From positions 768,503 to 832,502 of the forward strand of contig CAVZDD010000005.1 of NCBI GenBank assembly GCA_963773945.1: 64,000 nucleotides of DNA, written 5' to 3'. The DNA comes from an uncultured Thermoplasmata archaeon. GTDB lineage: Archaea > Thermoplasmatota > Thermoplasmata > Lutacidiplasmatales > UBA184. Both the position numbers and the translations under genes were made by a program. This document shows, one piece after another, positions 6,981 to 35,186 of this stretch (its first letter is position 1; each line of letters begins with the position of its first letter). Under the pieces are notes generated by a model. It was not told the DNA's origin, searched no databases, and saw only the letters and a list, made by a program, of their open reading frames with translations.

Positions 6981-8945
6981 TCAGCGTGAGGTTCGCTTGA
7001 GTTCCGCTTCGAGCTCCCGGTAGGCCCGGCGCGCCTCCTCGATGCTCGTTTCGTCCTCGAGGGTGGTTGTGTCTCCGAGCGGTCGGTCTTCGACCACGTC
7101 GCGGATCAGCCGACGCATGATTTTCGCGCTGCGAGTCTTCGGCACCTTGTCGACGAAGTAGATCGCCGAGGGGACCGCGATGGCCCCCATCGAGGACCGG
7201 ACCAGCTCGAAAAGTTCCTGCCGCAGCTGCGGACTCGCGGAGAAGCCCGGCTTGAGCACGACGCACGCGACCGGCACCTGTCCCTTGATTTCGTCGTGTC
7301 GGCCGATGACGGCCGACTCCGCCACGGCCGGATGGGTGATGAAAATGTTCTCCAGCTCGATGGTGGCGATGCGGTGGCCGGCGACCTTCAGGACCTCGTC
7401 GGCCCGTCCGAGGAGCCAGAGATAGCCGTCGGCGTCCGCCATGGCATAGTCGGCGGGATAGTACCACTTCGGGAAGCGGGAGAAGTAGACGGATTGGAAC
7501 CGGGCCTCGTCGTTCCAGAGGCCGATGAACTGGCCCGGCCACGGTTTTCGGATGACGATGTACCCCTTGCGGTCCGGCGGCAGCGGCACGCCGGCTTCGT
7601 CGACGACTTGGGCGTCCACGCCAGGAATCGGCAGGGTGGCGGAGCCGGGCTTGAGAGGAAAGTGCGCCGTACCCGGCTGGGGCGAGATCAGAATGCCGCC
7701 GGTCTCCGTTTGCCACCACGTGTCGACGATCGGGCACCGGGCTCCCCCGATTTCGCGGTAATACCAGTTCCAGGCCTCGGGATTGATCGCCTCGCCGACG
7801 GTCCCTAGCAGTCGGAGGGATGTGAGGTCGTGCATCCGGGGCCAGCGGTCGCCGTGCTTGATCGCGGCCCGGATCGCCGTCGGGGACGTGTACAGCGTCG
7901 TCACCCCGTACCGTTGGATGATGTTCCACCATCGGTCCGGTTGGGGGAAGTCCGGTGCCCCTTCGTAGATCACCGAGGATAGGCCGGCGAGGAGCGGTCC
8001 ATAGACGACGTACGTGTGCCCGGTGACCCACCCGATGTCGGCCGTGCACCAGAAGAGGTCGCGGTCCGTCGTGTCAAACACGACGCGCGTCGTGTAGTAC
8101 GCCCACAGCATGTACCCGCCCGTGGAATGGACGGCACCTTTCGGGCGGCCGGTGGTGCCGGAGGTATAGAGGATGAAACTCGGATGCGGTCCGGAAACCG
8201 GGGCGGCCGCGACCGTTCCCGAGCTGCCGGCCAGCGCGTCGTGGTACCACTCGTCCCGGTCCGGGTCCATCTGGACTTCGGAGCCGGTGCGTCGCACGAC
8301 GAGGACCTTTTCGACCGAGGGGGTCAGATACAGGGCGTCGTCCACGATGGATTTCAGCGCGACCACTTTTCCGCGCCGCCATCCGCCGTCGGCGGTGATC
8401 ACCAGCCTTGAGCCCGAATCGTTGATACGTTCGGCGAGGGCCGGGGCGGGGAACCCTCCGAAGACGACGGAATGAATGGCCCCCAGGCGTGCGGACGCGA
8501 GCATGGCGACCGGGAGTTCGGGGATCATCGGAAGGTAGAGCGTGATGCGGTCTCCGGGCCGGATTCCGGCCTCCTGGAGCGCCGCGGCCAATCGGTTGAC
8601 TTCCCGGTAGAGTTGAAAGTACGTCAACGCCCGATGGTCCCCCGGTTCGCCTTCCCAGTAGAACGCGACCTTGTGCCGTCGCGGCGACTCGATCCAACGG
8701 TCGAGGCAGTTGTACGCCAGGTTCGTCGACCAGCCCGGGAACCACCGGCCGTAAGGAGCCGCCTCGGTGGGTTCGAACAGCGGTCCTTGCCGATCGAACC
8801 ACGAGAGTTCGGTCGCGACCGGTCGCCAGAAACCTTCGGGATCCTCGAGGGCGCGTCGATTGAGTTCCTGAATCTTCAGGATGCCCGGCGAGACCGACCG
8901 GGTCGTTTGCAACGCGTTTCGAGGCGCGGGGTTCGGCTCCTCCAT
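6981..8945 (-). CDS. acs: acetyl-CoA synthetase (AMP-forming acetate--CoA ligase)
   Basis: 654 aa with a YTSGTTGRPKG AMP-binding motif. The WWQTETGG and C-terminal ..PKTRSAKIMRR motifs are characteristic of Acs. Confidence 0.9.
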   Translation of the reverse strand: MEEPNPAPRNALQTTRSVSPGILKIQELNRRALEDPEGFWRPVATELSWFDRQGPLFEPTEAAPYGRWFPGWSTNLAYNCLDRWIESPRRHKVAFYWEGEPGDHRALTYFQLYREVNRLAAALQEAGIRPGDRITLYLPMIPELPVAMLASARLGAIHSVVFGGFPAPALAERINDSGSRLVITADGGWRRGKVVALKSIVDDALYLTPSVEKVLVVRRTGSEVQMDPDRDEWYHDALAGSSGTVAAAPVSGPHPSFILYTSGTTGRPKGAVHSTGGYMLWAYYTTRVVFDTTDRDLFWCTADIGWVTGHTYVVYGPLLAGLSSVIYEGAPDFPQPDRWWNIIQRYGVTTLYTSPTAIRAAIKHGDRWPRMHDLTSLRLLGTVGEAINPEAWNWYYREIGGARCPIVDTWWQTETGGILISPQPGTAHFPLKPGSATLPIPGVDAQVVDEAGVPLPPDRKGYIVIRKPWPGQFIGLWNDEARFQSVYFSRFPKWYYPADYAMADADGYLWLLGRADEVLKVAGHRIATIELENIFITHPAVAESAVIGRHDEIKGQVPVACVVLKPGFSASPQLRQELFELVRSSMGAIAVPSAIYFVDKVPKTRSAKIMRRLIRDVVEDRPLGDTTTLEDETSIEEARRAYRELEAELKRTSR

Positions 8946-24507: not shown

Positions 24508-25296
24508 TTAGGTCTTCTCCGGCGGTGAGGAGGAGATGTCGGTCGGGGTCTCGGTCTCTTCCTCTTGACCGGTCTTCGTCGGCGGGACCTTCCGGGTCTT
24601 GTCCATCGCCCGGGGGCCGACGGTGGCGATCATGTAGAGCTCGGCGATCGTGAGGAGGATCAGGCCCACGGTGGCCGCCACGAGGTCGTACGGTTGGGCG
24701 ACCCGGACGTAGAAGTTCTCACTCCAAAGGGTGTTGCCGGCCGGATTCTCGAGGTAGGCGTGGACCTCGTAGACGCCCTGAAGGTACCACTTGAACTCGG
24801 TCAGGTCGTACGTCATACTGATCGTTCCGCCGGATGCCCCGAAGGGCGTGGACTCGACCTGTTGCTTCGTGTAGGCCGGGAACCCGAGGAATAAGATTAC
24901 CAGAAAGGCCTGGGAAACCCCTGTCCCGGTAGTGGGGCCCGTGAAGACGAACTGCACCGTCGCGATAGTAGAGAACGTCCAGCTGATCGCAGCAGCGTCG
25001 CTGACGGCGGTGTCGGTGTTGACTCCGTTCCACAGCACCATGCCCGTGACTCCGGTCTGGGCCGGAATAAGGGTCGAGCTTGCGCCACGGGCTTGGGACA
25101 GCACGCCCACCCCGTACGGAGCGAGAAAAACGACCGCCAACGCCACCGAGAGCAAGGGAAGGAGTCTCACTCCTCTCCGGGCCGAAACTCGAAAAGACTG
25201 CCGCACGGCGCGAGCAGTCTCCTCGGGGCTAAGAATGTATGGGTTCCACCTTCGGCGAAGCTTCCGACCGTCAGTACCGAGGCATCGTAGGGTCAA
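24508..25296 (-). CDS. hypothetical secreted/membrane-anchored protein
   Basis: Signal/TM-like LLPLLSVALAVVFLA, several N-x-S/T sequons and a C-terminal TM helix. Start uncertain; the track start overlaps the next gene. Confidence 0.45.
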   Translation of the reverse strand: MTLRCLGTDGRKLRRRWNPYILSPEETARAVRQSFRVSARRGVRLLPLLSVALAVVFLAPYGVGVLSQARGASSTLIPAQTGVTGMVLWNGVNTDTAVSDAAAISWTFSTIATVQFVFTGPTTGTGVSQAFLVILFLGFPAYTKQQVESTPFGASGGTISMTYDLTEFKWYLQGVYEVHAYLENPAGNTLWSENFYVRVAQPYDLVAATVGLILLTIAELYMIATVGPRAMDKTRKVPPTKTGQEEETETPTDISSSPPEKT

Positions 25297-26770
25297 TTTT
25301 CTCGGCCCAAGCCTCGATCCCGCCCTTCAGACTCGATACGTGCGTGAACCCCAGCTCGAGGAGCATCTGAGTGCCCTGGGCCGACCGGCGCCCGGAGTGG
25401 CAGTAGAGAACCACCTCCCTGGCATGCGCGAGTTCGGTGACGCGTTGCGGCAGCTCTCCGAGCGGGATCAGCGTCGCGCCCGATAGGTGGGCGATCTCCC
25501 ATTCTGACGGGTTACGTACGTCGATCACGAGCGGCGGGTCCTCCCCCGAGAGCCGGGCCGAGAGAGCTTCCGGCGTGATCTCGGGGATCTCGTCGGTCGC
25601 TGCGAGGTCTCCGGCCGCTGTGACGCCGCAGAAGGCCGGATAATCGATGAGGCCGGTCTGCGTCGGATGCGTACCGCAGATGACGCAGTCCGGATTCTTC
25701 CGGAGGCGAAGCTCGCGGAACCGCAGGGTGAGGGCATCGAACAGCAGCAGCCGGCCGATGAGGGGCTCCCCCACGCCGAGGAGGAGTTTCACCGTCTCGG
25801 TGGCCTGGATCGTCCCGATGAGCCCCGGTAGCACGCCGAAGACCCCGCCCTCGGCGCAGGACGGGACGAGACCCGGAGGTGGAGGTTCGGGGTACAGGCA
25901 CCGATAGCACGGGCCCCGGCGCGAGTCGAAGACGCTCGCCTGCCCCTCGAAGCGGTATATCGAACCGTAGACATTGGGTTTTCCGAGAAGAACCGAGGCA
26001 TCGTTCACGAGGTATCGCGTGGGAAAGTTGTCTGTTCCGTCGAGGATCACGTCGTACGGCCGTAGCGTTTCCATCGCGTTCTCGCTCGTGAGATGTTGCT
26101 CGTAGGTCCGGACGGTCACATCCGGATTCAGGTCCGTGAGCCGGTCCCGCGCCGCCTCGAGCTTGGGCCGTCCCACGTCCCGGGTTCCGTACATCACCTG
26201 GCGTTGCAGGTTCGAGGCCTCGACCCGGTCGAAATCGACGAGACCAATCTCGCCGACGCCGGCCGCCGCCAGATAGAGGGCGGCGGGGGAAGCGAGTCCA
26301 CCGGCGCCGACCAGCAGAACCTTCGACGCGCGGAGCCTGCGCTGACCCTTCACGCCGACTTCTGGCAGGAGGAGGTGCCGACTGTACCGTCGCATCTGAT
26401 CCCGGGTGAGCGGGGGACCTAGCCCCTCTGCGTCCGAGTTCAAACTGACGAGAGGAGCGGGACGGCCCGCGGAGCGAACCGACTCCGCAGGGGAACCGCC
26501 GGCGATCGCGGGGACGATGCTAAGGACGTCTCCCGGGTGAACGGGAGTTGCTTCCTGCTGGAGATACCGTACATCCTCGTCGTTCAGGTAGACGGTGACG
26601 AAGTTCCGGAGCTGGCCGGCGGTACCATAGAGATGCTTCTCGAGCCCGTGATGCTCCCGTACGAGTCCCCGGAGGACTTCGCCGACCGTGGACCCTTCCG
26701 CTTCGGAGACGGAGGCGCCGCCGGTGAAACTGCGAAGGGGAGTCGGGACTTTGACCTGCACTTTCGACAT
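25271..26770 (-). CDS. MoaD/ThiS-like ubiquitin-fold domain fused to MoeB/ThiF-type E1 and C-terminal rhodanese
   Basis: The first 92 aa are MoaD-like and end ...VPAIAGG. They are followed by an E1 Rossmann motif (LLVGAGGLASPAALYLAAAG...DFD..E.SNLQRQ), zinc CxxC pairs (CYRC, CVIC) and a rhodanese active-site loop (YCHSGRRS). Confidence 0.85.
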   Translation of the reverse strand: MSKVQVKVPTPLRSFTGGASVSEAEGSTVGEVLRGLVREHHGLEKHLYGTAGQLRNFVTVYLNDEDVRYLQQEATPVHPGDVLSIVPAIAGGSPAESVRSAGRPAPLVSLNSDAEGLGPPLTRDQMRRYSRHLLLPEVGVKGQRRLRASKVLLVGAGGLASPAALYLAAAGVGEIGLVDFDRVEASNLQRQVMYGTRDVGRPKLEAARDRLTDLNPDVTVRTYEQHLTSENAMETLRPYDVILDGTDNFPTRYLVNDASVLLGKPNVYGSIYRFEGQASVFDSRRGPCYRCLYPEPPPPGLVPSCAEGGVFGVLPGLIGTIQATETVKLLLGVGEPLIGRLLLFDALTLRFRELRLRKNPDCVICGTHPTQTGLIDYPAFCGVTAAGDLAATDEIPEITPEALSARLSGEDPPLVIDVRNPSEWEIAHLSGATLIPLGELPQRVTELAHAREVVLYCHSGRRSAQGTQMLLELGFTHVSSLKGGIEAWAEKIDPTMPRY

Positions 26771-26824
26771 GGGAGGAAGTGTCCCCGTGGGCCGGCTGAT
26801 ATTACTCCCTCCCTTACCCATTCT

Positions 26825-27295
26825 TCACCTCGACGCGGTTTCTAAGCGCTCCGCGGTCCACGACACGGGGGAGAATCGGCGCAGGTCGGGGTCGAGCTCG
26901 AAGGCCCCGATGTCGCCGGCCCGTCCGTGATCGACCGCAAGCACGAGGTAGGTGTACCAAGGCCAAGCATGCTCTTGGTCGAAGAGCGACGGAACGGCCG
27001 GGTGGTCCGGATGCGAGTGGTAGAATCCGACGACCGCTTCTCCCGTTCCTTCGAGGGAACTCTCGAATTGGCGGAGCGTTTCGGGTGGTATCACGAATCG
27101 GCGGCCCCGAGGGCCTTCCACTTCGTTCTCCATCGGCGTCACTCGAACGAGTCGCCGAATAGGGTGAGTCTCGCCCGCCGGCTCCCGCGCCACGAGGAAG
27201 CCGCAGCACTCCTCCGGGTAGGTGGCCTCCGCGTGACGGCGGATTGTTTCTACGAGTTCGGGGGAAAGGGAGACGTTCACGGAGCTTCCTCCCAA
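26825..27295 (-). CDS. JAMM/MPN+ metalloprotease (Mec+/CysO-peptidase-like)
   Basis: EECCGFL...GFYHSHPDHPAVPSLFD contains the E...HxHx7Sx2D JAMM motif. Confidence 0.8.
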   Translation of the reverse strand: MGGSSVNVSLSPELVETIRRHAEATYPEECCGFLVAREPAGETHPIRRLVRVTPMENEVEGPRGRRFVIPPETLRQFESSLEGTGEAVVGFYHSHPDHPAVPSLFDQEHAWPWYTYLVLAVDHGRAGDIGAFELDPDLRRFSPVSWTAERLETASR

Positions 27296-28257
27296 TGCCG
27301 CTCGGAAAGGTAGCGGTCTCCCCCATCGGGGAGGATCGTCACCATGACGGCCGGAACGCTGAGCGTTGCGGCGATGGAGAGCATCGCCGCGACGACCGCG
27401 CCGGACGAGGTGCCCACGAAGAGCCCCTCTTCACGGGCGAGTCGACGGGTCATCAACTGGGAATCTTCCGTGGACACCCGAACTGTTTCGTCAATCCACC
27501 GTTCATCGTAAGTCCCCGGCCGCAGGGCGGTGGGGAGGTGTTTCAATCCCTCGATACCGTGCATGGGTCCTTCCGGCTCCACCCCGATGACCCGAACGTT
27601 GGGGAATACCTGCTTTAGGAAACGGCCGGCGCCCGAGATGGTCCCGCCTGTCCCCACCCCCGCTACGAAGTGGGTCACGCGTCCCGACGTTTGCGTCCAG
27701 ATCTCGGGCCCGGTGCCGGTGAAGTGCGCTTCGGGATTGGCCGGATGATTGTACTGGTCGGGGTAGTAGTATCGCCCCGGCTCGGCGGTGGCGCGTCGTC
27801 GGGCTTCGCGTTGGGCCCCATCGGTTCCTTCCGCAGGATCGGTGAAGAGAATCTCGGCGCCATAGGTCCGGAGTCGCTGCACCCGCTCGGGACTCGCGTT
27901 GCGGGGAAGGCAGACCGCGACCGGGAAGCGGAGGCGCGCCCCTAACATCGCATAGGCGATGCCAGTGTTGCCGCTCGTCGCGTCGATGAGAGTCCTGCCG
28001 CCTCCCAGCGCGCCGGACGCAAGGGCGCTGCGGACAATCCCGAACGCGGCCCGGTCCTTGACTGAACCCGTGGGATTGAGGAATTCGGCCTTCCCCCAGA
28101 GCTCGTGCGTGGGCGGAAGGTCGTGACCGATCCGCTCCAGTCGGAGGAGAGGTGTGTTCCCCACGGTGCCAATCGAAAGGTCCGGTCCGGTCGGTGCGGG
28201 TCCCAACGCGGCGTTGGCCGCCGTGGAGTCTACCGAAGCTGGATGAGATGCGTGCAC
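27277..28257 (-). CDS. cysM: PLP-dependent cysteine synthase (CysM/CysK family)
   Basis: PLP lysine motif SVKDRAA, glycine loop GTGGT, 326 aa. Operonic with the JAMM and MoaD-E1 genes. Confidence 0.85.
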   Translation of the reverse strand: MHASHPASVDSTAANAALGPAPTGPDLSIGTVGNTPLLRLERIGHDLPPTHELWGKAEFLNPTGSVKDRAAFGIVRSALASGALGGGRTLIDATSGNTGIAYAMLGARLRFPVAVCLPRNASPERVQRLRTYGAEILFTDPAEGTDGAQREARRRATAEPGRYYYPDQYNHPANPEAHFTGTGPEIWTQTSGRVTHFVAGVGTGGTISGAGRFLKQVFPNVRVIGVEPEGPMHGIEGLKHLPTALRPGTYDERWIDETVRVSTEDSQLMTRRLAREEGLFVGTSSGAVVAAMLSIAATLSVPAVMVTILPDGGDRYLSERHWEEAP

Positions 28258-28407
28258 GTCCGTCCCACCTCAGGGACGGCGCCGCTCCAATAAGCCCTGC
28301 TGGTGTCCGGTTCAGCGAGTCCGATATCGACGCCCTCGTCGCCTGGGTCGCCCGCAACCCGCCCGCTCGAACAGCCCTAAGGAATCCGACTAAGCCAACC
28401 CGTTCTC

Positions 28408-28437
28408 AGGCGGGGGGCAACCCCCGCCTATTTTTCC
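28408..28437 (+). terminator. GC-rich hairpin (9-bp stem, GCAA loop) followed by T5 run
   Basis: aggcggggg-gcaa-cccccgcct-atttttcc in the cysM / small-ZnF divergent intergenic region. Confidence 0.3.
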
Positions 28438-28483
28438 TGACACCGCGGATCTGCTGCGGTCAGATCCACGAAGCCGGGGGGCC

Positions 28484-28846
28484 GTGCCCTTGACGCGACG
28501 GACAATCCTGGCGTGTCCGGTCTGTGGACTCGAGATCAGCGGCTACAAAGGCGCGCTGGTGGACCACCTTCGCGACGTTGACGGACGCGAGGACGCCGAA
28601 ATTCTTGCGGTCTTCGTCGTCCGAACCCGGCGCACGACCCTCTCCCTCTCACCCCCGGACCCGCCGAAAACCGACGGTGGACCAATCACCATCGGGCCGG
28701 ACATGCCGGCGCGCGACGCCGGTCGGATCTACCGGGCGCAGTCCCGGGTGAGCGCGAAACCAAAGGCCGTAGGAGGCGGCCGTCGGAGGAAGTCGACCTT
28801 CGAGAGCTCGTCGCCCGGATCCCGTGGCGAGCTCGAGGTCGCATAG
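28484..28846 (+). CDS. hypothetical small protein with CxxC motif
   Basis: GTG start, 120 aa, LACPVCGLEISGYKGALVDHL. No recognisable family. May belong to the host or to the adjacent element. Confidence 0.45.
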   Translation: MPLTRRTILACPVCGLEISGYKGALVDHLRDVDGREDAEILAVFVVRTRRTTLSLSPPDPPKTDGGPITIGPDMPARDAGRIYRAQSRVSAKPKAVGGGRRRKSTFESSSPGSRGELEVA

Positions 28847-29083
28847 AGACGGGCCGTCCTCAGCGCCACTTCCCTCCGAAGCAGGAGGAAGGGTGCCAGC
28901 TCATCCGGCAGGTCGTGACGATCGAGACCTGGACTGATAATCAGCATGGAACCTGGACTCTTGAACCTTCGGCACGACGGCGCGGGCCACGCACGTGAGT
29001 GTGTGTACAATCCCTGGGGCTTGGCAACCCCAGGAGCCGCCGTGTTCGCAAACCGCGGGGCAGCGGGCTTAGAGGACGGTCCA

Positions 29084-29118
29084 TCGATTTTCCTCTGTTT
29101 CTCTCTCGATTTTCCTCT
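29084..29118. repeat. 13-bp direct repeat tcgattttcctct x2 (22-bp period)
   Basis: Copies at 29084-29096 and 29106-29118, in the lower-GC left-end intergenic region of the element, 55-90 bp upstream of ORF 29171. Confidence 0.5.
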
Positions 29119-29170
29119 ACATGGAGGAGCAACCGACGGTCCGCGATATTCACACACACCAGGAGAAACG

Positions 29171-29527
29171 ATGGCACCACGAAGAAAACTGGACCGAAGG
29201 AAGCTCGAGCTGATGGCCGAACGAGTAAGGGACGCGGGGACCGCGGGCGTGCACCGCTCGATCCTGGCGGTGGCCTATGGGATCTCCCCGTCGACGCTGC
29301 GCGTCGAGTACGACGCGGTCCTATTGGACGTCGCGCCCGACCTCTACCGGCACGGCGCGACGTACTACGTCGACTCGGACAAGAGCGCGCAGCTTCTCAA
29401 CGCGCTCGTCCTCGAACGACAGGGGGACGTGGGGGGTGCGTTCGAGATCCGCCAACAGCTCCGCACGGGGCGGGCCCCCGTGACGGTCGGGCAGCGTACC
29501 CTCGACTCCGAGGAGGCGGGCTCGTGA
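29171..29527 (+). CDS. hypothetical protein (element ORF)
   Basis: ATG at 29171 with GGAG 7 nt upstream. 118 aa, MAPRRKLDRRKLELMAERVRDAGTAGV... The basic N-terminus may bind DNA. Confidence 0.5.
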   Translation: MAPRRKLDRRKLELMAERVRDAGTAGVHRSILAVAYGISPSTLRVEYDAVLLDVAPDLYRHGATYYVDSDKSAQLLNALVLERQGDVGGAFEIRQQLRTGRAPVTVGQRTLDSEEAGS

Positions 29528-30048
29528 GCGCCCAATCCGTAACATCCTCTCGGCGGAGGCGTGCAACACTTCGCCGTCGGGTCTGCGAGGCCTGCGGAAT
29601 CGACTTCCGCGCCCGACGAAGGAGCGCCAGGTTCTGCTCCACTCGGTGCAGGGTCAGCTCCATGAGGTGGCGGCGTTCCGACCCACTGCTCCGTTTGATC
29701 GCCGCCGAACGGTTGCTGCGCGAAGCGGCCGCGGCCTTTCGGGCCCGTGTCGACCACGACCCGGGAGATTCCGCTCAGATGAGAGCCGAAGCGAGGTTGG
29801 GGGCGCGAGTCTACCAGCTGGCGCTCGAGGTATGGGTACGATCGGCACACACCGCTGGCATCCCCCTCAGTGACTTAGGCGGCGCGCCCAAAAACAACCC
29901 CGAGCTTCGGGAACTTTGGATCCTGGGAGGCATCCCCTCGGCCCGATTGAGTGAATTTATCCAATTCGTCCAGCGGAGGTGTCTCACTGTCGCTGACAAC
30001 CGATTCAACATGAACCCACTCGGGCCGAAGTGGGAGGCGAGCTCGTGA
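29524..30048 (+). CDS. hypothetical protein with CxxC...CxxC zinc-binding motif (element ORF)
   Basis: GTG start overlaps the upstream stop (GTGA). Contains RRRVCEACGIDFRARRRSARFCSTRC. Confidence 0.45.
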   Translation: MSAQSVTSSRRRRATLRRRVCEACGIDFRARRRSARFCSTRCRVSSMRWRRSDPLLRLIAAERLLREAAAAFRARVDHDPGDSAQMRAEARLGARVYQLALEVWVRSAHTAGIPLSDLGGAPKNNPELRELWILGGIPSARLSEFIQFVQRRCLTVADNRFNMNPLGPKWEASS

Positions 30049-30404
30049 GGCGTCGGGGACCGCCGCGGCGGCGGGGCGACAGGGCGGACTGGAGCGCGCT
30101 CCAACGGGAGCTCTCCAGGACGGAAAGGTCGGTTCGTCGGCTCGGGCCGGTGTTGGACACGCTGGAGGAAAGATACTCTCCCGCGAAGAACGCTCCCAAC
30201 GTGGGAGCGTTCTCTCCCCGACCCGAGACCTACACGGTACAAGTCTGTACCTGGTGCCATCACAGGGCAGCCCACCACCGCCGAGGGGATTGCGACGTGG
30301 AAGACCCAAGGACGTTGACTGGTCGGTGCACGTGCAAAGCCGCCGCGGTACGTGACAAGAACGGGAGCTGGGTCATCGTGGTCCGCCCGAAGGGCCAGCC
30401 ATGA
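30030..30404 (+). CDS. hypothetical protein (element ORF)
   Basis: ORF of 124 aa, basic, with Cys/His cluster CTWCHHRAAHHRRGDC. Start uncertain. Confidence 0.35.
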   Translation: MGGELVRRRGPPRRRGDRADWSALQRELSRTERSVRRLGPVLDTLEERYSPAKNAPNVGAFSPRPETYTVQVCTWCHHRAAHHRRGDCDVEDPRTLTGRCTCKAAAVRDKNGSWVIVVRPKGQP

Positions 30405-30411
30405 AGACCGC

Positions 30412-30606
30412 TCAGGCGAACCGCGCGATCATGTCGCCCCACTTCTGGTTCAGCACGTCGATTCGGTGGAAGAACTCCCCGATGTCGGTCAACATCTTAT
30501 CCCGCTCGACGGGGGACTCGGGGACCTCTATCTCGTTCAGGATGCGCAACATCTCGTCGGCGAGCTCGTTCATCTTCACGACGGGGGAGCTCCCGTTCTC
30601 GGGCAT
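30412..30606 (-). CDS. hypothetical small protein (64 aa, element ORF)
   Basis: ATG..TGA on the reverse strand in a lower-GC patch. MPENGSSPVVKMNELADEMLRILNEIEVPESPVERDKMLTDIGEFF... is acidic and protein-like. Convergent with the upstream + ORF. Confidence 0.4.
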   Translation of the reverse strand: MPENGSSPVVKMNELADEMLRILNEIEVPESPVERDKMLTDIGEFFHRIDVLNQKWGDMIARFA

Positions 30607-30631
30607 GGAGCCCGCGATGGCGGGGATGTAG

Positions 30632-30814
30632 ATGGCGAAGAGGGGGACCAGGTGGACCGTCACGGTCACGTTCGACTTCGATGAGGAGAGCTTCACCTTC
30701 ACGACCGACACCCGCTTGCTGCTCGACCGGCTCAGGCTGCTCCTGGACCACGACGACTTCCCGAACTGCGTGGTGACGATCTCGAAGTGGACGCCCCAGA
30801 ACTTGGACGGGTAG
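30632..30814 (+). CDS. hypothetical small protein (60 aa, element ORF)
   Basis: MAKRGTRWTVTVTFDFDEESFTFTTDTRLLLDRL... with regular codon-3 GC. Confidence 0.4.
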   Translation: MAKRGTRWTVTVTFDFDEESFTFTTDTRLLLDRLRLLLDHDDFPNCVVTISKWTPQNLDG

Positions 30815-30820
30815 TAGCAG

Positions 30821-30970
30821 ATGACGCTGAACGTTCTCAGCAAGGAGCTCCAGGTGGTCGCCGCCAAGCACGGGTACGTCGTCACGAAGCAGTACAACCT
30901 GGTCCGCCTGAACTCGGTCACGGTCTACGTGCGGCTCGACAAGACCCACGCCGGGCTCGTGGAGAAGTAG
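30821..30970 (+). CDS. hypothetical small protein (49 aa, element ORF)
   Basis: MTLNVLSKELQVVAAKHGYVVTKQYNLVRLNSVTVYVRLDKTHAGLVEK. The stop abuts the resolvase start. Confidence 0.4.
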   Translation: MTLNVLSKELQVVAAKHGYVVTKQYNLVRLNSVTVYVRLDKTHAGLVEK

Positions 30971-31567
30971 ATGTTGGAGCCGGCGACCCACGCGAGCCGC
31001 CCGCTCGTCGTGTTCGTGCCGACACGCGCCACGACGGCGCTCCTCTTCCTGAGGTGCAGCACGTCCGAACAGGACTACACGCGACAGCGTGAGGACCTGG
31101 AGCGCGACGCCGCACGGCTCGGTTGGGAAGTCGTCGGCACGATCGGTGCGTACGTCTCGGGCACGTCGAACGAGAACGAGCTCAACGAGCTCCGCGCCCG
31201 GGCGGCCCGGCACGAGTTCGATGTCTGCATGGTGTGGGAGCTCTCCCGGCTGTCCCGGAGAGGCCCGGCGGCCGTTTTCGAGCTCCTGACGCAGCTCGAA
31301 CGATTGGGCACGCGCGTTTGGTCGCACTCCGAGACGTGGCTCGACCAGGACGGCCCTGCGCGTGAGCTCCTGATCTCGGTCTTCAGTTGGTGGGGCGCGA
31401 TGGAGCGCGCGGCCATTTCGGCGCGCACAAAATCCGGCATGGCGTCAAGGAAGGCGCTTGGGATCCACGTCGGTCGGCCGCAGGGCGCGAAGGACCGGCG
31501 GCCCCGCAAACGCCGAGCGACAAGGGGACCCTTCTCCCGGCTTGAGTTCGCGTCGGGGTCTCGATAG
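30971..31567 (+). CDS. serine recombinase (resolvase/invertase catalytic domain)
   Basis: LRCSTSEQ nucleophile-Ser motif near the N-terminus, ELSRLSRR and ERAAISARTKSGMASRKALGIHVGRP motifs of the resolvase catalytic domain. Short basic tail; no obvious C-terminal HTH. Confidence 0.75.
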   Translation: MLEPATHASRPLVVFVPTRATTALLFLRCSTSEQDYTRQREDLERDAARLGWEVVGTIGAYVSGTSNENELNELRARAARHEFDVCMVWELSRLSRRGPAAVFELLTQLERLGTRVWSHSETWLDQDGPARELLISVFSWWGAMERAAISARTKSGMASRKALGIHVGRPQGAKDRRPRKRRATRGPFSRLEFASGSR

Positions 31568-31664
31568 CAAATCGGGGGCAGAGCTGAGGGGTCCCCCTTT
31601 TTGGAGCCCGATTTTCCTACCCCTTTTTCTACGGGTTGGTGCGTGGGCTTGCTTGCTACTACCC

Positions 31665-31970
31665 ATGCGGAGAAAGAACAAGGCGTGTCCTGAGGGCTGC
31701 AATCGCTTATTCAGCGGCCAAGGTCTCGTCGGTCACTTACTTTTTGTTCACAAAATCAAGCTGGTTCGGACGATCCCGACCCCCCCCACCCCCGTGCCAT
31801 TGAGATATGTTCTTCCCGAAGACGAGCCGCGCCTTCACGATGAAATCCGGATGGCAGCGAGGCCGTCGTTCACCTCCGCGCCGGCTTCGCCACCGGCACG
31901 GGCCTCGCCGCCCTCCGTGAGATCACACCGCTTCCCAGTCTCTATCGACTTGGGGGAGGCTCCTCGATGA
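31665..31970 (+). CDS. C2H2-type zinc-finger protein (element ORF)
   Basis: MRRKNKACPEGCNRLFSGQGLVGHLLFVHK gives C-x3-C-x11-H-x4-H with conserved hydrophobics. Pro-rich C-terminus. Lower-GC upstream region. Confidence 0.55.
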   Translation: MRRKNKACPEGCNRLFSGQGLVGHLLFVHKIKLVRTIPTPPTPVPLRYVLPEDEPRLHDEIRMAARPSFTSAPASPPARASPPSVRSHRFPVSIDLGEAPR

Positions 31971-32329
31971 GCGGCACGGAGCTCGCGACGGGCCGAAACC
32001 GCAGGGTGGCAACCTTCTCTCCATCGGCCTTGGAGCAATCCCGCGATCATTTGCTTCAGGGTTTACTCGAACAGGACCGGGTGTTCCTCGAGGCGTGCGC
32101 GCAGACGGGCACCGACCCACGCGCATCCGTGCGTGTAGCCGTAGGGGGGCCTGGGCTCGTCGCGGTCTCAATCAAGCCTGAGTGCGTCGCGAATCTCCTG
32201 CGGTTTGTGCGGAGCGCGCCCCGGCGACTCGAGCTCGATTTCACGGAAGCGCCGGTCTTCGACGACGAGCCCACGCCTTCACTCCCTCCTCCCTCACTGT
32301 CCAAACCAACGGACAAAAACAGGAGTTGA
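31967..32329 (+). CDS. hypothetical protein (element ORF)
   Basis: ATG overlapping the upstream stop (ATGA). 120 aa, no recognisable motifs. Confidence 0.4.
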   Translation: MSGTELATGRNRRVATFSPSALEQSRDHLLQGLLEQDRVFLEACAQTGTDPRASVRVAVGGPGLVAVSIKPECVANLLRFVRSAPRRLELDFTEAPVFDDEPTPSLPPPSLSKPTDKNRS

Positions 32330-32333
32330 AAAC

Positions 32334-32639
32334 ATGGCAAGACTGAGCTACGCCTTTCCCGATGGAGAGTTCGACCGACCGATGGGACCGATGGCGACGC
32401 TGGGCGACCCGCTCCGAAGTGAGCTGTCAATCGGCGCACGCCGGGCGTGGGACAGTCCCACCGGGCAGGCGCGACGCGAGCAACTACGCGCCGCGGCCAG
32501 AGGCCCCGCTGGCGAGATGAGCCGGGCGATCGCGCCGTTCCGGGCCCAGATCTCGAACGCCTTTCGGCGTGTGGGTCCGTCGCTGTCGACCGCCTACCGG
32601 TCGATCTGGAGCGGCTACGGATACGAGAGCCCCTTCTGA
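32334..32639 (+). CDS. hypothetical protein (element ORF)
   Basis: ATG at 32334 with AGGAG upstream. 101 aa, MARLSYAFPDGEFDRPMGPMATLGDPL... Confidence 0.4.
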   Translation: MARLSYAFPDGEFDRPMGPMATLGDPLRSELSIGARRAWDSPTGQARREQLRAAARGPAGEMSRAIAPFRAQISNAFRRVGPSLSTAYRSIWSGYGYESPF

Positions 32640-32671
32640 ACGGAAAGGTGAATCGTAAGGAGGTTCAGAGC

Positions 32672-33070
32672 GTGGGAGCCGGAGGGGTTGTCGCCGGTGG
32701 CCTTGTCGCGGGCGGGATCGTGTACGGAGTGGGACTCCATTTCGGCTGGTGGGAACTACCGACGTGGCTCCAGCCACCGGCCGCGCCGGCCGCGGCGTCG
32801 CAAGCCTCAGCGGAGGGAGCACCGCCGGCGCGATACGGACTGAGGTTCACCCAAGAGGGGCAAACGAACACCGATGTAGGTCCGAGCGCGCGCTACCCCG
32901 GAGCAACTGAGCGCCGCGCAAGGTTCAGCTACGTGCAATCTCCGCCGTTCGTGGTCGAGCCCGAGGGCGCCGCCGCGGCGCGTAGGTCGTTTCAGGCCAT
33001 AGAATCCGGACGGACGAGCCAAGAAAACGCCGTCGTGCTGCGAAGATTATTCGCTACGCCGTTCGGCTGA
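32672..33070 (+). CDS. hypothetical membrane protein (element ORF)
   Basis: GTG start with GGAGG upstream. Gly-rich N-terminal TM helix VGAGGVVAGGLVAGGIVYGVGL. Confidence 0.4.
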   Translation: MGAGGVVAGGLVAGGIVYGVGLHFGWWELPTWLQPPAAPAAASQASAEGAPPARYGLRFTQEGQTNTDVGPSARYPGATERRARFSYVQSPPFVVEPEGAAAARRSFQAIESGRTSQENAVVLRRLFATPFG

Positions 33071-33090
33071 GTGTGGCACATTGTGGCACA
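33071..33090. repeat. tandem 10-bp repeat gtgtggcaca / ttgtggcaca
   Basis: Two adjacent copies, 9/10 identical, directly after the stop of ORF 32672..33070. Confidence 0.5.
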
Positions 33091-33297
33091 ATCACTCGAT
33101 GATCGACAAAGGGGTCGACTTGCACGGGGTCGTCTTCGGCGTCGAGAACGTGGCGCCGGTTGTTCCGGTGAGCTCCGTCGCGGCGCCCCCACCAACGACA
33201 GGTTGATCGGAGCTCTCTCGGAAAACGTATGAACTACTTTCGCTTCCTCGATTCAGTGTCGACTGTCAGCGGCACGGGTGATGCGCCTCGGCGCCTA

Positions 33298-33321
33298 CCC
33301 GCGATTCTGACAGATCGCGGG
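33298..33321. promoter_or_regulatory. perfect 8-bp inverted repeat cccgcgat-N8-atcgcggg immediately upstream of integrase start
   Basis: The repeat lies 12 bp upstream of the TTG at 33333 and is flanked by ggcgcc-tc-ggcgcc. Confidence 0.35.
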
Positions 33322-33332
33322 CGGGCGCCCCC

Positions 33333-34517
33333 TTGACTTCTGAGTTGGTCCGCGGCGTTTCGGGCGAGTTCTGGACCTCGTCCCACGATGGGACCAGGTT
33401 CCGGCTGTGGGTCCCGACCGAAGCAACCCCGGCGCCGACGCCGTCCAAATCCACGCTGGCCTTCGAGACGATCCTGCCCTCACCGTCGTCACTCTCCCGA
33501 CTTGTCGAGGTGAAAACGGCCGGTCCCCCGCCACCTTGTACGCCTTCATGCGCATCACCGACAGAAACAGTTTCATCAACCGTTTCGAGGAAGTTCGTGC
33601 CCTACAAGGAGCGCGGACTGTTCGAGCAGGTAGAGAAGTGGTCACGAGAACAGGGTGGAGACGAGGGAACGGTGGACACCCGGGTCGACCGGGTCCTTCT
33701 GTTCAGCCGCTCGGTCGCCACCCTTGGGTTCCCCCAACCGTACAGCGGGCGCGACGTAACGCGCTCAATGGTGGAGAGGTTCAAACACGACGGGATCTCG
33801 CCGCCGACGCCGCACAACATCCAGCACCATTGCGCCGGGCGGAGGCTCGCCCCGAACAACATTCACAACACGCTGCCCGAGGTTCGGTCTTGGCTAATCT
33901 CGTGCGGCAACCCGCTGGCCGCGGATCGCCGACTCTGGAAGATGGTCGGCCGCGCGCAGTCGCTCTACGTGGACCAGATGAACGAACCACGCGAGCTACG
34001 CGAGTACCTGAACGCGATGGCGCACGACGCGCGCCTCCAGGCGGAGGTCATCCTGATGGGGCCGGTGCAGATCCGTACCGAAGCGGCGCTGCACGTCCCA
34101 CCGGAGAACCTGTCTCTTTCGGCAGACCCAAGAGTGTTGTCGACCGTTCTGGTGTTGGACGAAGTCAAGTTCGGGGAGTCGTACCGGACCGGCGTCCCTC
34201 CGCAGGTCGTCGCGGCGCTGATGAACGCGGTAGTGGGGATGGAGCCGGGCAAGCCCATCTGGAGGACGTCGACGTCCGACTTCCGCCGCAGGTACAAGTG
34301 CGCGATCGCCGCCCGTGGGCTGAAGTACTACGCCCCCCGAGAACTCCGGAGTTCGGTCGCGACGTTCGCGGTGGAGGCAGACGTCCGCCCCCAGGTTCTA
34401 CAGGGGCAGATGAACCACGCCGAGTACGGAACTACGGCGAAGTTCTACGCCAAGGTCCGGCCGAAGACGCGCCTCGTGGACCTGGAGAAGTTGGGCCGCT
34501 ACCTCATGGAGGAGTAG
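33333..34517 (+). CDS. int: tyrosine recombinase / integrase
   Basis: C-terminal PRELRSSVATFAVE...LQGQMNHAEYGTTAKFYAKV gives the R...H-x-x-(E/R)...Y tyrosine-recombinase catalytic pattern. The coding frame was confirmed by codon-3 GC against the two other frames. The N-terminal ~100 aa is low-complexity, so the true start may lie downstream. Confidence 0.8.
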   Translation: MTSELVRGVSGEFWTSSHDGTRFRLWVPTEATPAPTPSKSTLAFETILPSPSSLSRLVEVKTAGPPPPCTPSCASPTETVSSTVSRKFVPYKERGLFEQVEKWSREQGGDEGTVDTRVDRVLLFSRSVATLGFPQPYSGRDVTRSMVERFKHDGISPPTPHNIQHHCAGRRLAPNNIHNTLPEVRSWLISCGNPLAADRRLWKMVGRAQSLYVDQMNEPRELREYLNAMAHDARLQAEVILMGPVQIRTEAALHVPPENLSLSADPRVLSTVLVLDEVKFGESYRTGVPPQVVAALMNAVVGMEPGKPIWRTSTSDFRRRYKCAIAARGLKYYAPRELRSSVATFAVEADVRPQVLQGQMNHAEYGTTAKFYAKVRPKTRLVDLEKLGRYLMEE

Positions 34518-34538
34518 ACCATGCCCGGGCGGCGTCGT

Positions 34539-35186
34539 TCACCTCAACTGAATCAGGTGCGTGCACGTCAGCCCGCCTCGCGTGATCGAATCCTCGAGCT
34601 GCAGGCCCGACTGTCCGAGAAGGGCCTCGGTGAGATTCTTGTCGAAGACCTCGCAGAGCAGGTAGGCGTGGGTCAGTGCGGTGTGCCGGAACACGCAGTT
34701 GGTCCGGTTGATCCGAACCTCTCCGTCCGGCAGCGTCTGAACCTGGGCACGGAAACCGAGCTTGTTGAGGGCGTCCGCCAGCGCGACGATCCGTTCCTCC
34801 CTCGTTCCCTCGGGAGGGATTTCCGCCGCGATCTGACGCGCCATGCGACGGGCGGCCTCGGCGAACAGCGCGGAGGTGTATCCCTCTCCTTCCTGGGCGA
34901 GGAGTTCCTCCATGACGGAGTCGAGCAGGAACTCGTACCGACGGGGAAACAGATCCTGGCCCTGGGAGGTGAGCACGTACCGCTTTTTCGGGCGGCCGAC
35001 GCCTTCGCGATGGAAGGAAGGACTGACGAGGCCCCGATCCTCGAGGCGGTCCAGGTGCCCCCGAACGGCGCTCTCCTGTATTCCGAGGTTACGAGCCAAG
35101 TCGCGCGCGCTGCGGGGGGAGACGGCGAGCGCCTCGATGATCTTGCCGCGGGTGTTGTCGGTCAGCATCAGGTCGCCAGTTGCCAT
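34539..35186 (-). CDS. winged-helix transcriptional regulator with Cys-rich C-terminal domain (SufR-like candidate)
   Basis: N-terminal wHTH (IIEALAVSPRSARDLARNLGIQESAVRGHLDRLEDRGLV). C-terminal CVFRHTALTHAYLLC...GGLTCTH offers 3 Cys plus His ligands. Divergent from sufC. Confidence 0.6.
   Translation of the reverse strand: MATGDLMLTDNTRGKIIEALAVSPRSARDLARNLGIQESAVRGHLDRLEDRGLVSPSFHREGVGRPKKRYVLTSQGQDLFPRRYEFLLDSVMEELLAQEGEGYTSALFAEAARRMARQIAAEIPPEGTREERIVALADALNKLGFRAQVQTLPDGEVRINRTNCVFRHTALTHAYLLCEVFDKNLTEALLGQSGLQLEDSITRGGLTCTHLIQLR

Follow-up and report, generated by a model that had tools for sequence, protein, structure and literature searches.

A probable cryptic integrative element at the overlap of a SufR-type regulator gene and cysM in an uncultured soil Thermoplasmata archaeon

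We analysed a stretch of 64,000 nucleotides (contig CAVZDD010000005.1 of assembly GCA_963773945.1, positions 768,503 to 832,502), hereafter the window, from an uncultured Thermoplasmata archaeon, that is, from a poorly sampled archaeal lineage, as an initial annotation made from the letters alone had surmised. Between the suf genes and cysM the window carries a 6,297-bp insertion (28261-34557), which is very probably a cryptic integrative element, either plasmid-like or a minimal provirus, of a soil-dwelling host. The initial annotation had proposed an element of ~5.7 kb at 28847-34517; the insertion is real, but that interval begins 586 nt too far to the right and ends 40 nt short.

According to the mechanism that we propose, the Xer-like tyrosine integrase of the element would recombine an attachment (att) core on the excised form (attP) with the chromosomal core TGCGTGCACGTC (attB), placed within the 28-nt overlap of the 3' end of a regulator gene and the 5' end of cysM. 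Both arms of the element would imitate the target, the right arm rebuilding the end of the regulator gene and the left arm giving cysM a new Shine-Dalgarno-like GAGGTG and a TATA-like TTATT. No host gene would be lost, and the cysM-JAMM-ThiS/ThiF operon would be cut off from the transcription unit of the regulator. The genes of the element would run toward the integrase in about three units, each following an (A/G)ATTTT(T)CCT motif, and a serine recombinase would resolve multimers of the excised circle or catalyse some other intramolecular reaction.

RESULTS

Element borders and proof of insertion

Contigs retrieved by an exact-sequence look-up of the regulator protein turned out to be of two kinds. 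On empty-site contigs (L001, 2.0 Mb long; L004; L005) cysM directly follows the regulator gene, the two overlapping by 28 nt, whereas on occupied contigs (L002, L003, L006) the element lies between them. Occupied contigs are 100% identical to the window and the flanks of the empty ones 99.1-99.7%; the element itself is 99.96-100% identical among short-read and NCBI assemblies of the occupied strain. Since the flanks are more than 99% identical and the insertion differs, these are strains of one species that is polymorphic for the element. Site-specific integration at a gene 3' end, which the initial annotation had suspected, is thus borne out by empty sites in conspecific strains.

Aligning the empty site with the two junctions at once gives the exact borders. 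The attL core occupies positions 28249-28260 and the attR core 34558-34569, and identity to the empty site switches at the core. Its two 12-bp copies form an exact direct repeat, 6,309 bp apart, reading TGCGTGCACGTC on the plus strand and GACGTGCACGCA on the regulator strand; in the 64 kb this 12-mer occurs just twice, at the two junctions, with 0 occurrences expected by chance. The possibility, also raised initially, that the integrase and its neighbours might belong to a syntenic core block of related genomes was not borne out: the order sufC-regulator-cysM-JAMM, or a close variant of it, is kept in 21 related Thermoplasmata species without any open reading frame (ORF) of the element. Relatives of the regulator among GTDB species genomes all come from uncultured Thermoplasmata of soil and peat projects.

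Among 6.3-kb stretches of the window, the insertion deviates most in its tetranucleotide usage (r 0.95 versus 0.97-0.99). The lower-GC patches described initially do not amount to a signal, the GC content of the element being 0.648 versus 0.661 for the rest, a non-significant difference of ~1 standard deviation. No tRNA or Rfam feature is present at or near the site or within the window, and integration into a tRNA gene was rejected for this reason.

Target site and repair of both host genes

Profile matches uphold the initial assignment of the genes on both sides. One flank consists of cysM, a JAMM protease gene and a ThiS-ThiF-rhodanese fusion, the other of an ArsR-type regulator followed by sufC/S/B/D. 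The cysM gene (27277-28257, minus strand) encodes a pyridoxal phosphate-dependent cysteine synthase (PF00291, E-value 7.7e-72). The regulator gene (34539-35186, minus strand), divergent to sufC, encodes a 215-aa protein with an ArsR-type helix-turn-helix (HTH; PF01022, E 4.6e-10), a GRP motif and three Cys residues, and its 3' end is the integration target. These traits match the description of SufR-type [4Fe-4S] regulators, among which is an archaeal group encoded next to suf operons (bioRxiv 10.64898/2025.12.26.696629).

The att core spans the regulator codons Thr-Cys-Thr-His and, in the other frame, includes the GTG start of cysM (28257-28255). The C-terminal CTHLIQL of the regulator is invariant in 22 of the 22 species compared, and its Cys would by position match the third [4Fe-4S] cluster ligand of SufR. 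In the occupied strains everything downstream of the core is supplied by the right arm of the element (34518-34557), of which positions 34539-34557, read on the minus strand, provide the last base of the His codon, the codons for Leu-Ile-Gln-Leu-Arg and the regulator stop. The last six codons and the stop read CAT CTC ATC CAG CTT CGG TAG at the empty site and CAC CTG ATT CAG TTG AGG TGA at the occupied one. The two thus differ at 8 of 21 bases, all of the differences being synonymous, and the regulator protein is 100% identical between occupied and empty strains. We considered that the arm might have been copied from the sufR of another sampled species and rejected this, since the TTG AGG TGA ending occurs in none of L007-L027; therefore the arm is not a recent copy of a sampled sufR. 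Judged by its codons, it is a diverged imitation of the regulator end that is kept by selection at the protein level.

The other gene receives a new upstream region from the left non-coding arm (28261-28483). On the minus strand this arm has GAGGTG at 28271-28266 and a TTATT box at 28293-28289, that is, 9-14 and 32-36 nt upstream of the cysM start, and these may act as ribosome-binding site and promoter of cysM, respectively. On its plus strand a terminator-like scan found a T-run behind a 9-bp G+C hairpin (28408-28439), next to which lies an inverted repeat (28444-28470). In the occupied strains 6.3 kb of oppositely oriented genes part the regulator from cysM.

A further observation concerns the distribution of the site. 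In another Thermoplasmata species, whose regulator is 92% identical, the same 12-bp attB core GACGTGCACGCA is found at the regulator 3' end (L009:8600-8650), so that this species could be a permissive host for the element.

The tyrosine integrase

Both recombinase genes proposed in the initial annotation survive profile searches. The tyrosine integrase of 306 aa is encoded at the right end of the element (33597-34517, plus strand; the open frame reaches upstream to 33333) and matches PF00589 with 30.1 bits versus a cut-off of 27.1, as well as PHROG_1 (E 1.7e-7). Residues R160, K191, R251, H274 and Y284 (306-aa numbering) are invariant in a six-member alignment of the family (A2), so the full tyrosine-recombinase catalytic set is present and in order. 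The box R248-x-x-R251 reads RELR in the window integrase, RTLR in its relative P0002 (see below) and H/M-x-L-R in other members. The N-terminal ~130 residues have no Pfam match (PF02899 or PF13495), yet W15, G44, R56 and G81 are kept within the family.

This family is rare. No relatives were found by a word-indexed search of 5.8 billion proteins, in GTDB genomes or in IMG/VR, and a scan of JGI contigs with P0002 gave no match. An exhaustive HMMER search of 1.84 billion representatives returned 14 matches at E<=0.001, five of them full-length with 26-42% identity. The best solved matches of the family profile are structures of archaeal XerA (5hxy, E 4e-16; 4a8e, E 2e-15).

In the integrated state the integrase gene is whole: the gap between its stop and that of the convergent regulator gene is 21 nt, in line with the short distance noted initially, and the att core begins 40 nt downstream of the integrase stop. 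In class II archaeal integrases the gene is likewise undisrupted by integration, following a lambda-like paradigm (Badel et al. 2021, PMC8371274). Because its gene is intact when integrated, the window integrase behaves like these classical enzymes and not like the SSV type. SSV-type (class I, 'suicidal') integrases and those of the pT26-2 family, in contrast, have attP within their own gene, so that integration splits it. Published signatures are R...YxxR...Y for pNOB8 and R...KxxR...Y for SSV1 (PMC8371274); neither fits, the first residue of the HxxR box being Arg in both the window integrase and P0002. With XerA and pNOB8-type enzymes the window integrase has in common the tyrosine recombinase fold, the catalytic set and a gene undisrupted by integration; no SAM-like core-binding domain (PF02899 or PF13495) was detected at its N-terminus. 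Moreover, XerA is a chromosomal dimer resolvase, whereas the window integrase is borne by an element and has only 14 detectable relatives.

The serine recombinase

The second recombinase (30971-31567, plus strand) is a 198-aa serine enzyme (PF00239, E 1.5e-25) made up of a catalytic domain, an E-helix and a basic tail, VGRPQGAKDRRPRKRR. It aligns to residues 8-144 of Tn3 and gamma-delta resolvases (5cy1/1gdt), with ~23 non-conserved residues before the catalytic domain. R28, S30, R93, R96, SRLSR and GRPxGxxD..PR are kept in the family alignment (A3), and the position of Asp67 in the DRLxR box is taken by Ser92. The active-site residues are thus intact in this enzyme too. With gamma-delta/Tn3 resolvases and the Hin/Gin invertases it shares the Ser nucleophile, the Arg residues, the E-helix and the GRP motif at which the DNA-binding arm starts. 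Those enzymes have a C-terminal HTH; in the window enzyme only ~30 residues follow the E-helix, no Pfam HTH domain is matched, and the place of the HTH is taken by a basic tail of the form GRPxGxKD(K/R)xPRxRR. IS607-type serine transposons are different again, having an N-terminal MerR-like HTH and an adjacent tnpB, neither of which is found here.

The short build appears to be typical of the family. We found ~28 close homologues (54-72% identity, 172-225 aa, PF00239 only), the one with a taxonomic label coming from Thermoplasmata. The same short basic tail ends 12 of the 12 aligned homologues (A3), with HVGRPKGSKD(K/R)xPRxRR as its common form, and we infer that it might serve as an AT-hook-like minor-groove arm. 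Homologues occur in diverse mobile settings: on L056 one accompanies the same integrase family and on L064 one stands near another integrase fragment, while others are located on a virus-like 33-kb contig (L062) and in a methylase-rich island next to tRNA-Ser (L058-L061). Next to the resolvase homologues we found no conserved res-like site, and just a terminator-like motif, CCCCTTTT, recurs. The most likely role of the enzyme would be to resolve multimers of the excised circle, or to carry out another intramolecular reaction, rather than to integrate the element.

The virus-like contig with its HTH-less recombinase homologue is rich in DNA methylases and PAPS (3'-phosphoadenosine-5'-phosphosulfate) reductase (L062:1-18398), and the tRNA-Ser-adjacent island carries MazE and an MmeI-type methylase together with the homologue (L058:2030-14124).

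Related elements

A second element at the sufR site comes from another Thermoplasmata contig (L067), on which the gene for integrase P0002 (42% identical) stands directly beside the 3' end of a gene for a SufR homologue (65% identical). Repeats at 1756-1782 and 7844-7870, with an 11-bp core, AGGTGCGTGCA, in common, bound this element of 6,088 bp. Both repeat copies encode CTHLIQLT*, with 4 of 21 bases differing, synonymously. Two diverged elements therefore use the same sufR site and the same repair trick. The left end of the L067 element also has a block of ~30 nt in common with window positions 28463-28497. Its cargo includes a MazE-like gene, a SAP-domain protein and a serine recombinase of a different type, 34% identical to that of the window and bearing an HTH where the latter has none.

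Other members of the integrase family lie in different surroundings. On L046 the gene for integrase P0004 ends a block of 4,837 bp with a GC content of 61% versus 71%, small zinc-finger ORFs and bounding repeats of 55 nt; the repeat is 34 nt away from the integrase stop, and a serine recombinase is absent. The neighbourhood of P0004 (L046:1-4892), with a hisA/F-like gene (His_biosynth), a threonyl-tRNA synthetase (ThrRS) gene and an H+-pyrophosphatase (H+-PPase) gene, is also that of P0015 in a different metagenome-assembled genome (L068:566-2525), which suggests a second recurrent target. On L056 a further family member is found ~8 kb from a homologue of the resolvase; its att borders were sought and not found. 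C2H2-like ORFs are present in the L046 and L056 elements as well.

DISCUSSION

Nature of the element and the enzyme that integrates it

Although the insertion itself is directly observed, its interpretation as an integrative element able to move by means of its tyrosine integrase has several points against it. Among its ORFs, searches of Pfam, PHROGs, NCBIfam and PADLOC reveal no gene for replication, partition, a capsid, packaging or transfer, and its autonomy is therefore no more than putative; in particular, no ORF has a domain of a replication initiator, be it a rolling-circle replication Rep, a primase-polymerase, MCM or a superfamily 3 (SF3) helicase. The excised circle was not found, all contigs with element proteins being colinear with the integrated form, and the attP junction (...AATCAGG-TGCGTGCACGTC-CGTCCCACC...) is absent from JGI metagenomes and IMG/VR. 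One contig (L053; ENA ERZ25039587 contig_160615, 6,209 bp) consists of element sequence only, covering window positions 28301-34514 at 95% identity with 67 gaps, and is a noisy long-read fragment. It ends ~40 nt inside both borders, so we do not count it as an episome; it is probably an assembly bubble in a mixed population. The empty-site 2-Mb contig stems from the same project. Finally, the PF00589 score of the integrase is barely above the threshold and its activity is only predicted, and the junctions might in principle be the work of the serine recombinase.

The last of these points can be put as an explanation of its own, in which the serine recombinase inserted the element and the tyrosine enzyme is an Xer-like dimer resolvase. 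Serine recombinases are able to integrate DNA, the closest solved relatives of the integrase family are indeed the XerA dimer resolvases, and a serine recombinase accompanies the integrase in three of the four on-contig contexts (window, L056 and L067, not L046; a fifth context, L068, is outside this count, as its element is cut by the contig end). Nonetheless, L046 has the same integrase family and 55-nt att repeats with no serine recombinase, while the two sufR-site elements carry different types of serine recombinase and related integrases. The integrase gene abuts att in three of the three elements with definable att repeats (window, L046 and L067), and the 198-aa serine enzyme lacks a DNA-binding domain of the kind that chooses sites. 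Arms of extended similarity around an identical core of 11-12 bp also fit tyrosine integrases. Because of L046, the differing serine enzymes at the sufR site and the position of the integrase next to att, we take the tyrosine enzyme to be the one that integrates, and consider insertion by the serine recombinase very improbable.

Another explanation is that the element belongs to an archaeal virus too small to have been recognised, as its provirus or satellite. One of the small hydrophobic or zinc-finger ORFs would then encode a virion protein, and particles would carry the element, with or without a helper. In archaeal viruses, C2H2 zinc fingers and numerous small ORFs in one direction are frequent; each of three related elements encodes one small membrane-type protein (o12 in the window, described below; one of 89 aa with two helices in L067; one of 153 aa in L046), and a homologue of the resolvase occurs on the virus-like 33-kb contig. 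On the other hand, no ORF matches a capsid, portal, terminase or packaging ATPase in PHROG or Pfam, in agreement with the initial remark that no capsid gene is recognisable, even though novel archaeal capsids could escape such searches. IMG/VR holds neither relatives of the integrase or of the zinc-ribbon protein o3 (see below) nor the attP junction, and at the DNA level the element as a whole is matched by neither GenBank phages nor PLSDB plasmids. We regard this explanation as unlikely, though by no means negligible, and it is compatible with integration as proposed above rather than exclusive of it. It is less probable still that the element is a dead remnant, an immobile island inherited by vertical descent only. 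Such a view would accommodate the undetected circular form and the missing recognisable replication module, but it sits poorly with the presence/absence polymorphism between strains whose flanks are >99% identical, with 12-bp repeats that are exact and undecayed, with intact catalytic residues in both recombinases and no frameshifted genes, and with an arm under purifying selection. The cryptic integrative element proposed above is by far the most probable reading.

Relation to known systems

The window element fits the class of cryptic integrated elements (CIE) defined for Thaumarchaeota. The att sites of these have a median of 17 bp (13 bp in NitEve-E2), and in 14 of 68 cases integration took place in the 3'-distal portion of a protein-coding gene (Krupovic et al. 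2019, PMC6563490). Their borders, too, were shown against an empty site, and in NitEve-E2 the element sequence gives the gene a new end and stop codon (PMC6563490). The window element shares with them a small size, an integrase, short att repeats, absence from the orthologous site of relatives, borders proven by an empty site, and a lack of replication genes and of viral, conjugative and casposon hallmark genes. It differs in its host (Thermoplasmata instead of Thaumarchaeota), in a different and much rarer integrase family, in a target that is a two-gene overlap with both genes repaired, and in the additional HTH-less serine recombinase. Furthermore, the gene tail supplied by the CIE is a non-homologous replacement, whereas that of the window element is an exact synonymous recoding.

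The combination of two recombinases has a precedent as well. In the pT26-2 family of plasmids and integrated elements of Thermococcales and Methanococcales (TKV, PHV1, MMPV1), a PF00239 serine recombinase is encoded alongside the tyrosine integrase (Soler et al. 2010, PMC2926602), and therefore the pairing is not new. However, those elements are ~21 kb long, target tRNA genes, have an SSV-type integrase that is split on integration and encode conserved large core proteins, whereas the window element is 6.3 kb long, sits in a protein-coding target and keeps its integrase intact; we detected no genes common to both. In size, the Sulfolobus plasmids pSSVi and pXZ1 are more similar, being integrative, 5.7-7 kb long and equipped with one integrase and few small ORFs; pSSVi spreads as a fusellovirus satellite. 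Both have a large recognisable replication protein, an SSV-type integrase and tRNA targets, none of which is seen in the window element.

Few mobile elements seem to have been described from uncultured Thermoplasmata of soil and peat, and our literature searches turned up no account of elements like these. Neither the class of element nor the targeting of gene 3' ends is new, and the concepts are unchanged. What the locus offers is a case resolved to the base pair, in which the site is known both empty and occupied and is also used by a second, independent element. It defines a rare integrase family and the attB that goes with it, and it shows an element that targets a conserved coding sequence overlapping the start of a second gene and leaves both genes undamaged by means of a synonymously recoded end. 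The pair of integrase and attB and the domain-poor serine recombinase family are testable parts for genetic tools in GC-rich archaea.

It is tempting to speculate further that sufR-targeting elements detach the cysM-JAMM-ThiS/ThiF operon from SufR-linked transcription and hand it to an element-borne promoter, so that integration and excision would switch the sulfur and Fe-S physiology of the strain, and that the HTH-less serine recombinase with its AT-hook-like tail is a new minimal build, which, in a GC-rich genome, would find its site via the minor groove, or else would assist the Xer-like integrase as a partner or directionality factor. Taken as a whole, we hold this extension to be rather improbable.

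Remaining genes and non-coding regions of the element

Pfam, PHROGs, NCBIfam and PADLOC return nothing for 11 of the 13 ORFs. Across the element runs a chain of tightly abutting plus-strand ORFs; the chaining reported initially is thus confirmed, except that the plus-strand ORF at 30401-30631 is more likely to be replaced by a minus-strand gene (o5, below). The first member, o1 (28484-28846, plus strand; GC content at third codon positions, GC3, 0.78), encodes a 120-aa Cys-x2-Cys protein with no family match. It had been taken for a small zinc-finger gene of the host, a view that fails because the gene lies inside the att borders and is therefore encoded by the element.

The largest non-coding region (324 bp, 28847-29170) agrees well with the repeat-rich intergenic region of ~320 bp described before. 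It contains a hairpin and three short direct-repeat pairs, namely two copies each of TCGATTTTCCTCT, ACCTGGACT and GACGGTCC, and might be a regulatory or origin region. An exact 10-mer, CGATTTTCCT, has three copies, all confined to the element: two in this region and a third after a GGGGG...CCCCC hairpin with a T-run (31574-31618, plus strand, 56 nt upstream of o9). These copies lie 56-86 nt upstream of o2 and o9, and a near-copy after the hairpin at 28408-28429 lies ~50 nt upstream of o1. Together they may represent promoter or operator elements of three transcription units, and the hairpin within 31574-31618 may function as a terminator.

The next ORFs encode small, partly zinc-binding proteins. 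The product of o2 (29171-29527, plus strand; GC3 0.85) has 118 aa, is predicted to be all-helical and has no family match. That of o3 (29524-30048, plus strand), 174 aa long, carries a CxxC...CxxC zinc ribbon in its N-terminal part and is otherwise helical. It gives weak PHROG matches to HNH and primase-associated families (E 1.6e-5 to 7e-3); these cover the Zn-binding, Cys-rich stretch only, and an assignment as HNH or primase was rejected on that account. Single-sequence AlphaFold models of o2 and o3 were unusable, with predicted local distance difference test (pLDDT) values of 54.3 and 51.6. Similarly, the 124-aa product of o4 (30030-30404, plus strand), Cys/His-rich at its C-terminus, has a sub-threshold match to the Cas12f/TnpB zinc ribbon (E 0.0012, 19 bits versus a cut-off of 26); as only the Cys-rich stretch is matched, we rejected TnpB and take it to be a generic zinc ribbon.

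For o5, a probable 64-aa helical protein with an uncertain start, the strand had to be chosen. Gene callers disagree, and the alternative is a 76-aa ORF (30401-30631, plus strand); codon-usage likelihood and the GC1>GC2 pattern (GC content at first versus second codon positions) favour the minus strand up to ~30660, making 30412-30606 on that strand the more likely gene. It is followed by o6 (30632-30814, 60 aa) and o7 (30821-30970, 49 aa), both on the plus strand and free of family matches, the latter abutting the resolvase gene. GC3 reaches 0.98 in the o6-o7 region (30632-30970) and 0.95-0.98 over 30400-31300 (o5-o7 and the start of the resolvase gene). Host genes have ~0.8 and the other parts of the element 0.6-0.85, which hints that this module is of different source and the element of mosaic origin.

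Downstream of the resolvase gene, o9 (31665-31970, plus strand) encodes a 101-aa C2H2-type zinc finger (CPEGCNRLFSGQGLVGHLLFVH, C-x3-C-x12-H-x4-H), found by motif scan with no Pfam match and consistent with the C2H2 call of the initial annotation. Then follow, all on the plus strand and with no family matches, o10 (31967-32329, 120 aa, GC3 0.72), o11 (32334-32639, 101 aa, GC3 0.78) and o12 (32672-33070). The last of these, ~132 aa long with an uncertain start, is called as a gene in Logan contigs and has a glycine-rich hydrophobic segment, by which it is possibly a membrane protein.

Neighbouring host genes

Two observations concern host genes near the elements. On L067 the SufB gene (L067:10760-13240) encodes 826 aa with a faint intein-splicing match and may contain an intein. 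In the window, a 516-aa ORF (25271-26821, minus strand) that adjoins the JAMM protease and cysM genes fuses ThiS, ThiF (E1) and rhodanese, whereas on L067 ThiS and ThiF-rhodanese are separate genes. An N-terminal ThiS fused to its E1 would need cleavage after Gly-Gly to serve as a sulfur carrier, and the JAMM protein is perhaps the enzyme that cleaves it.

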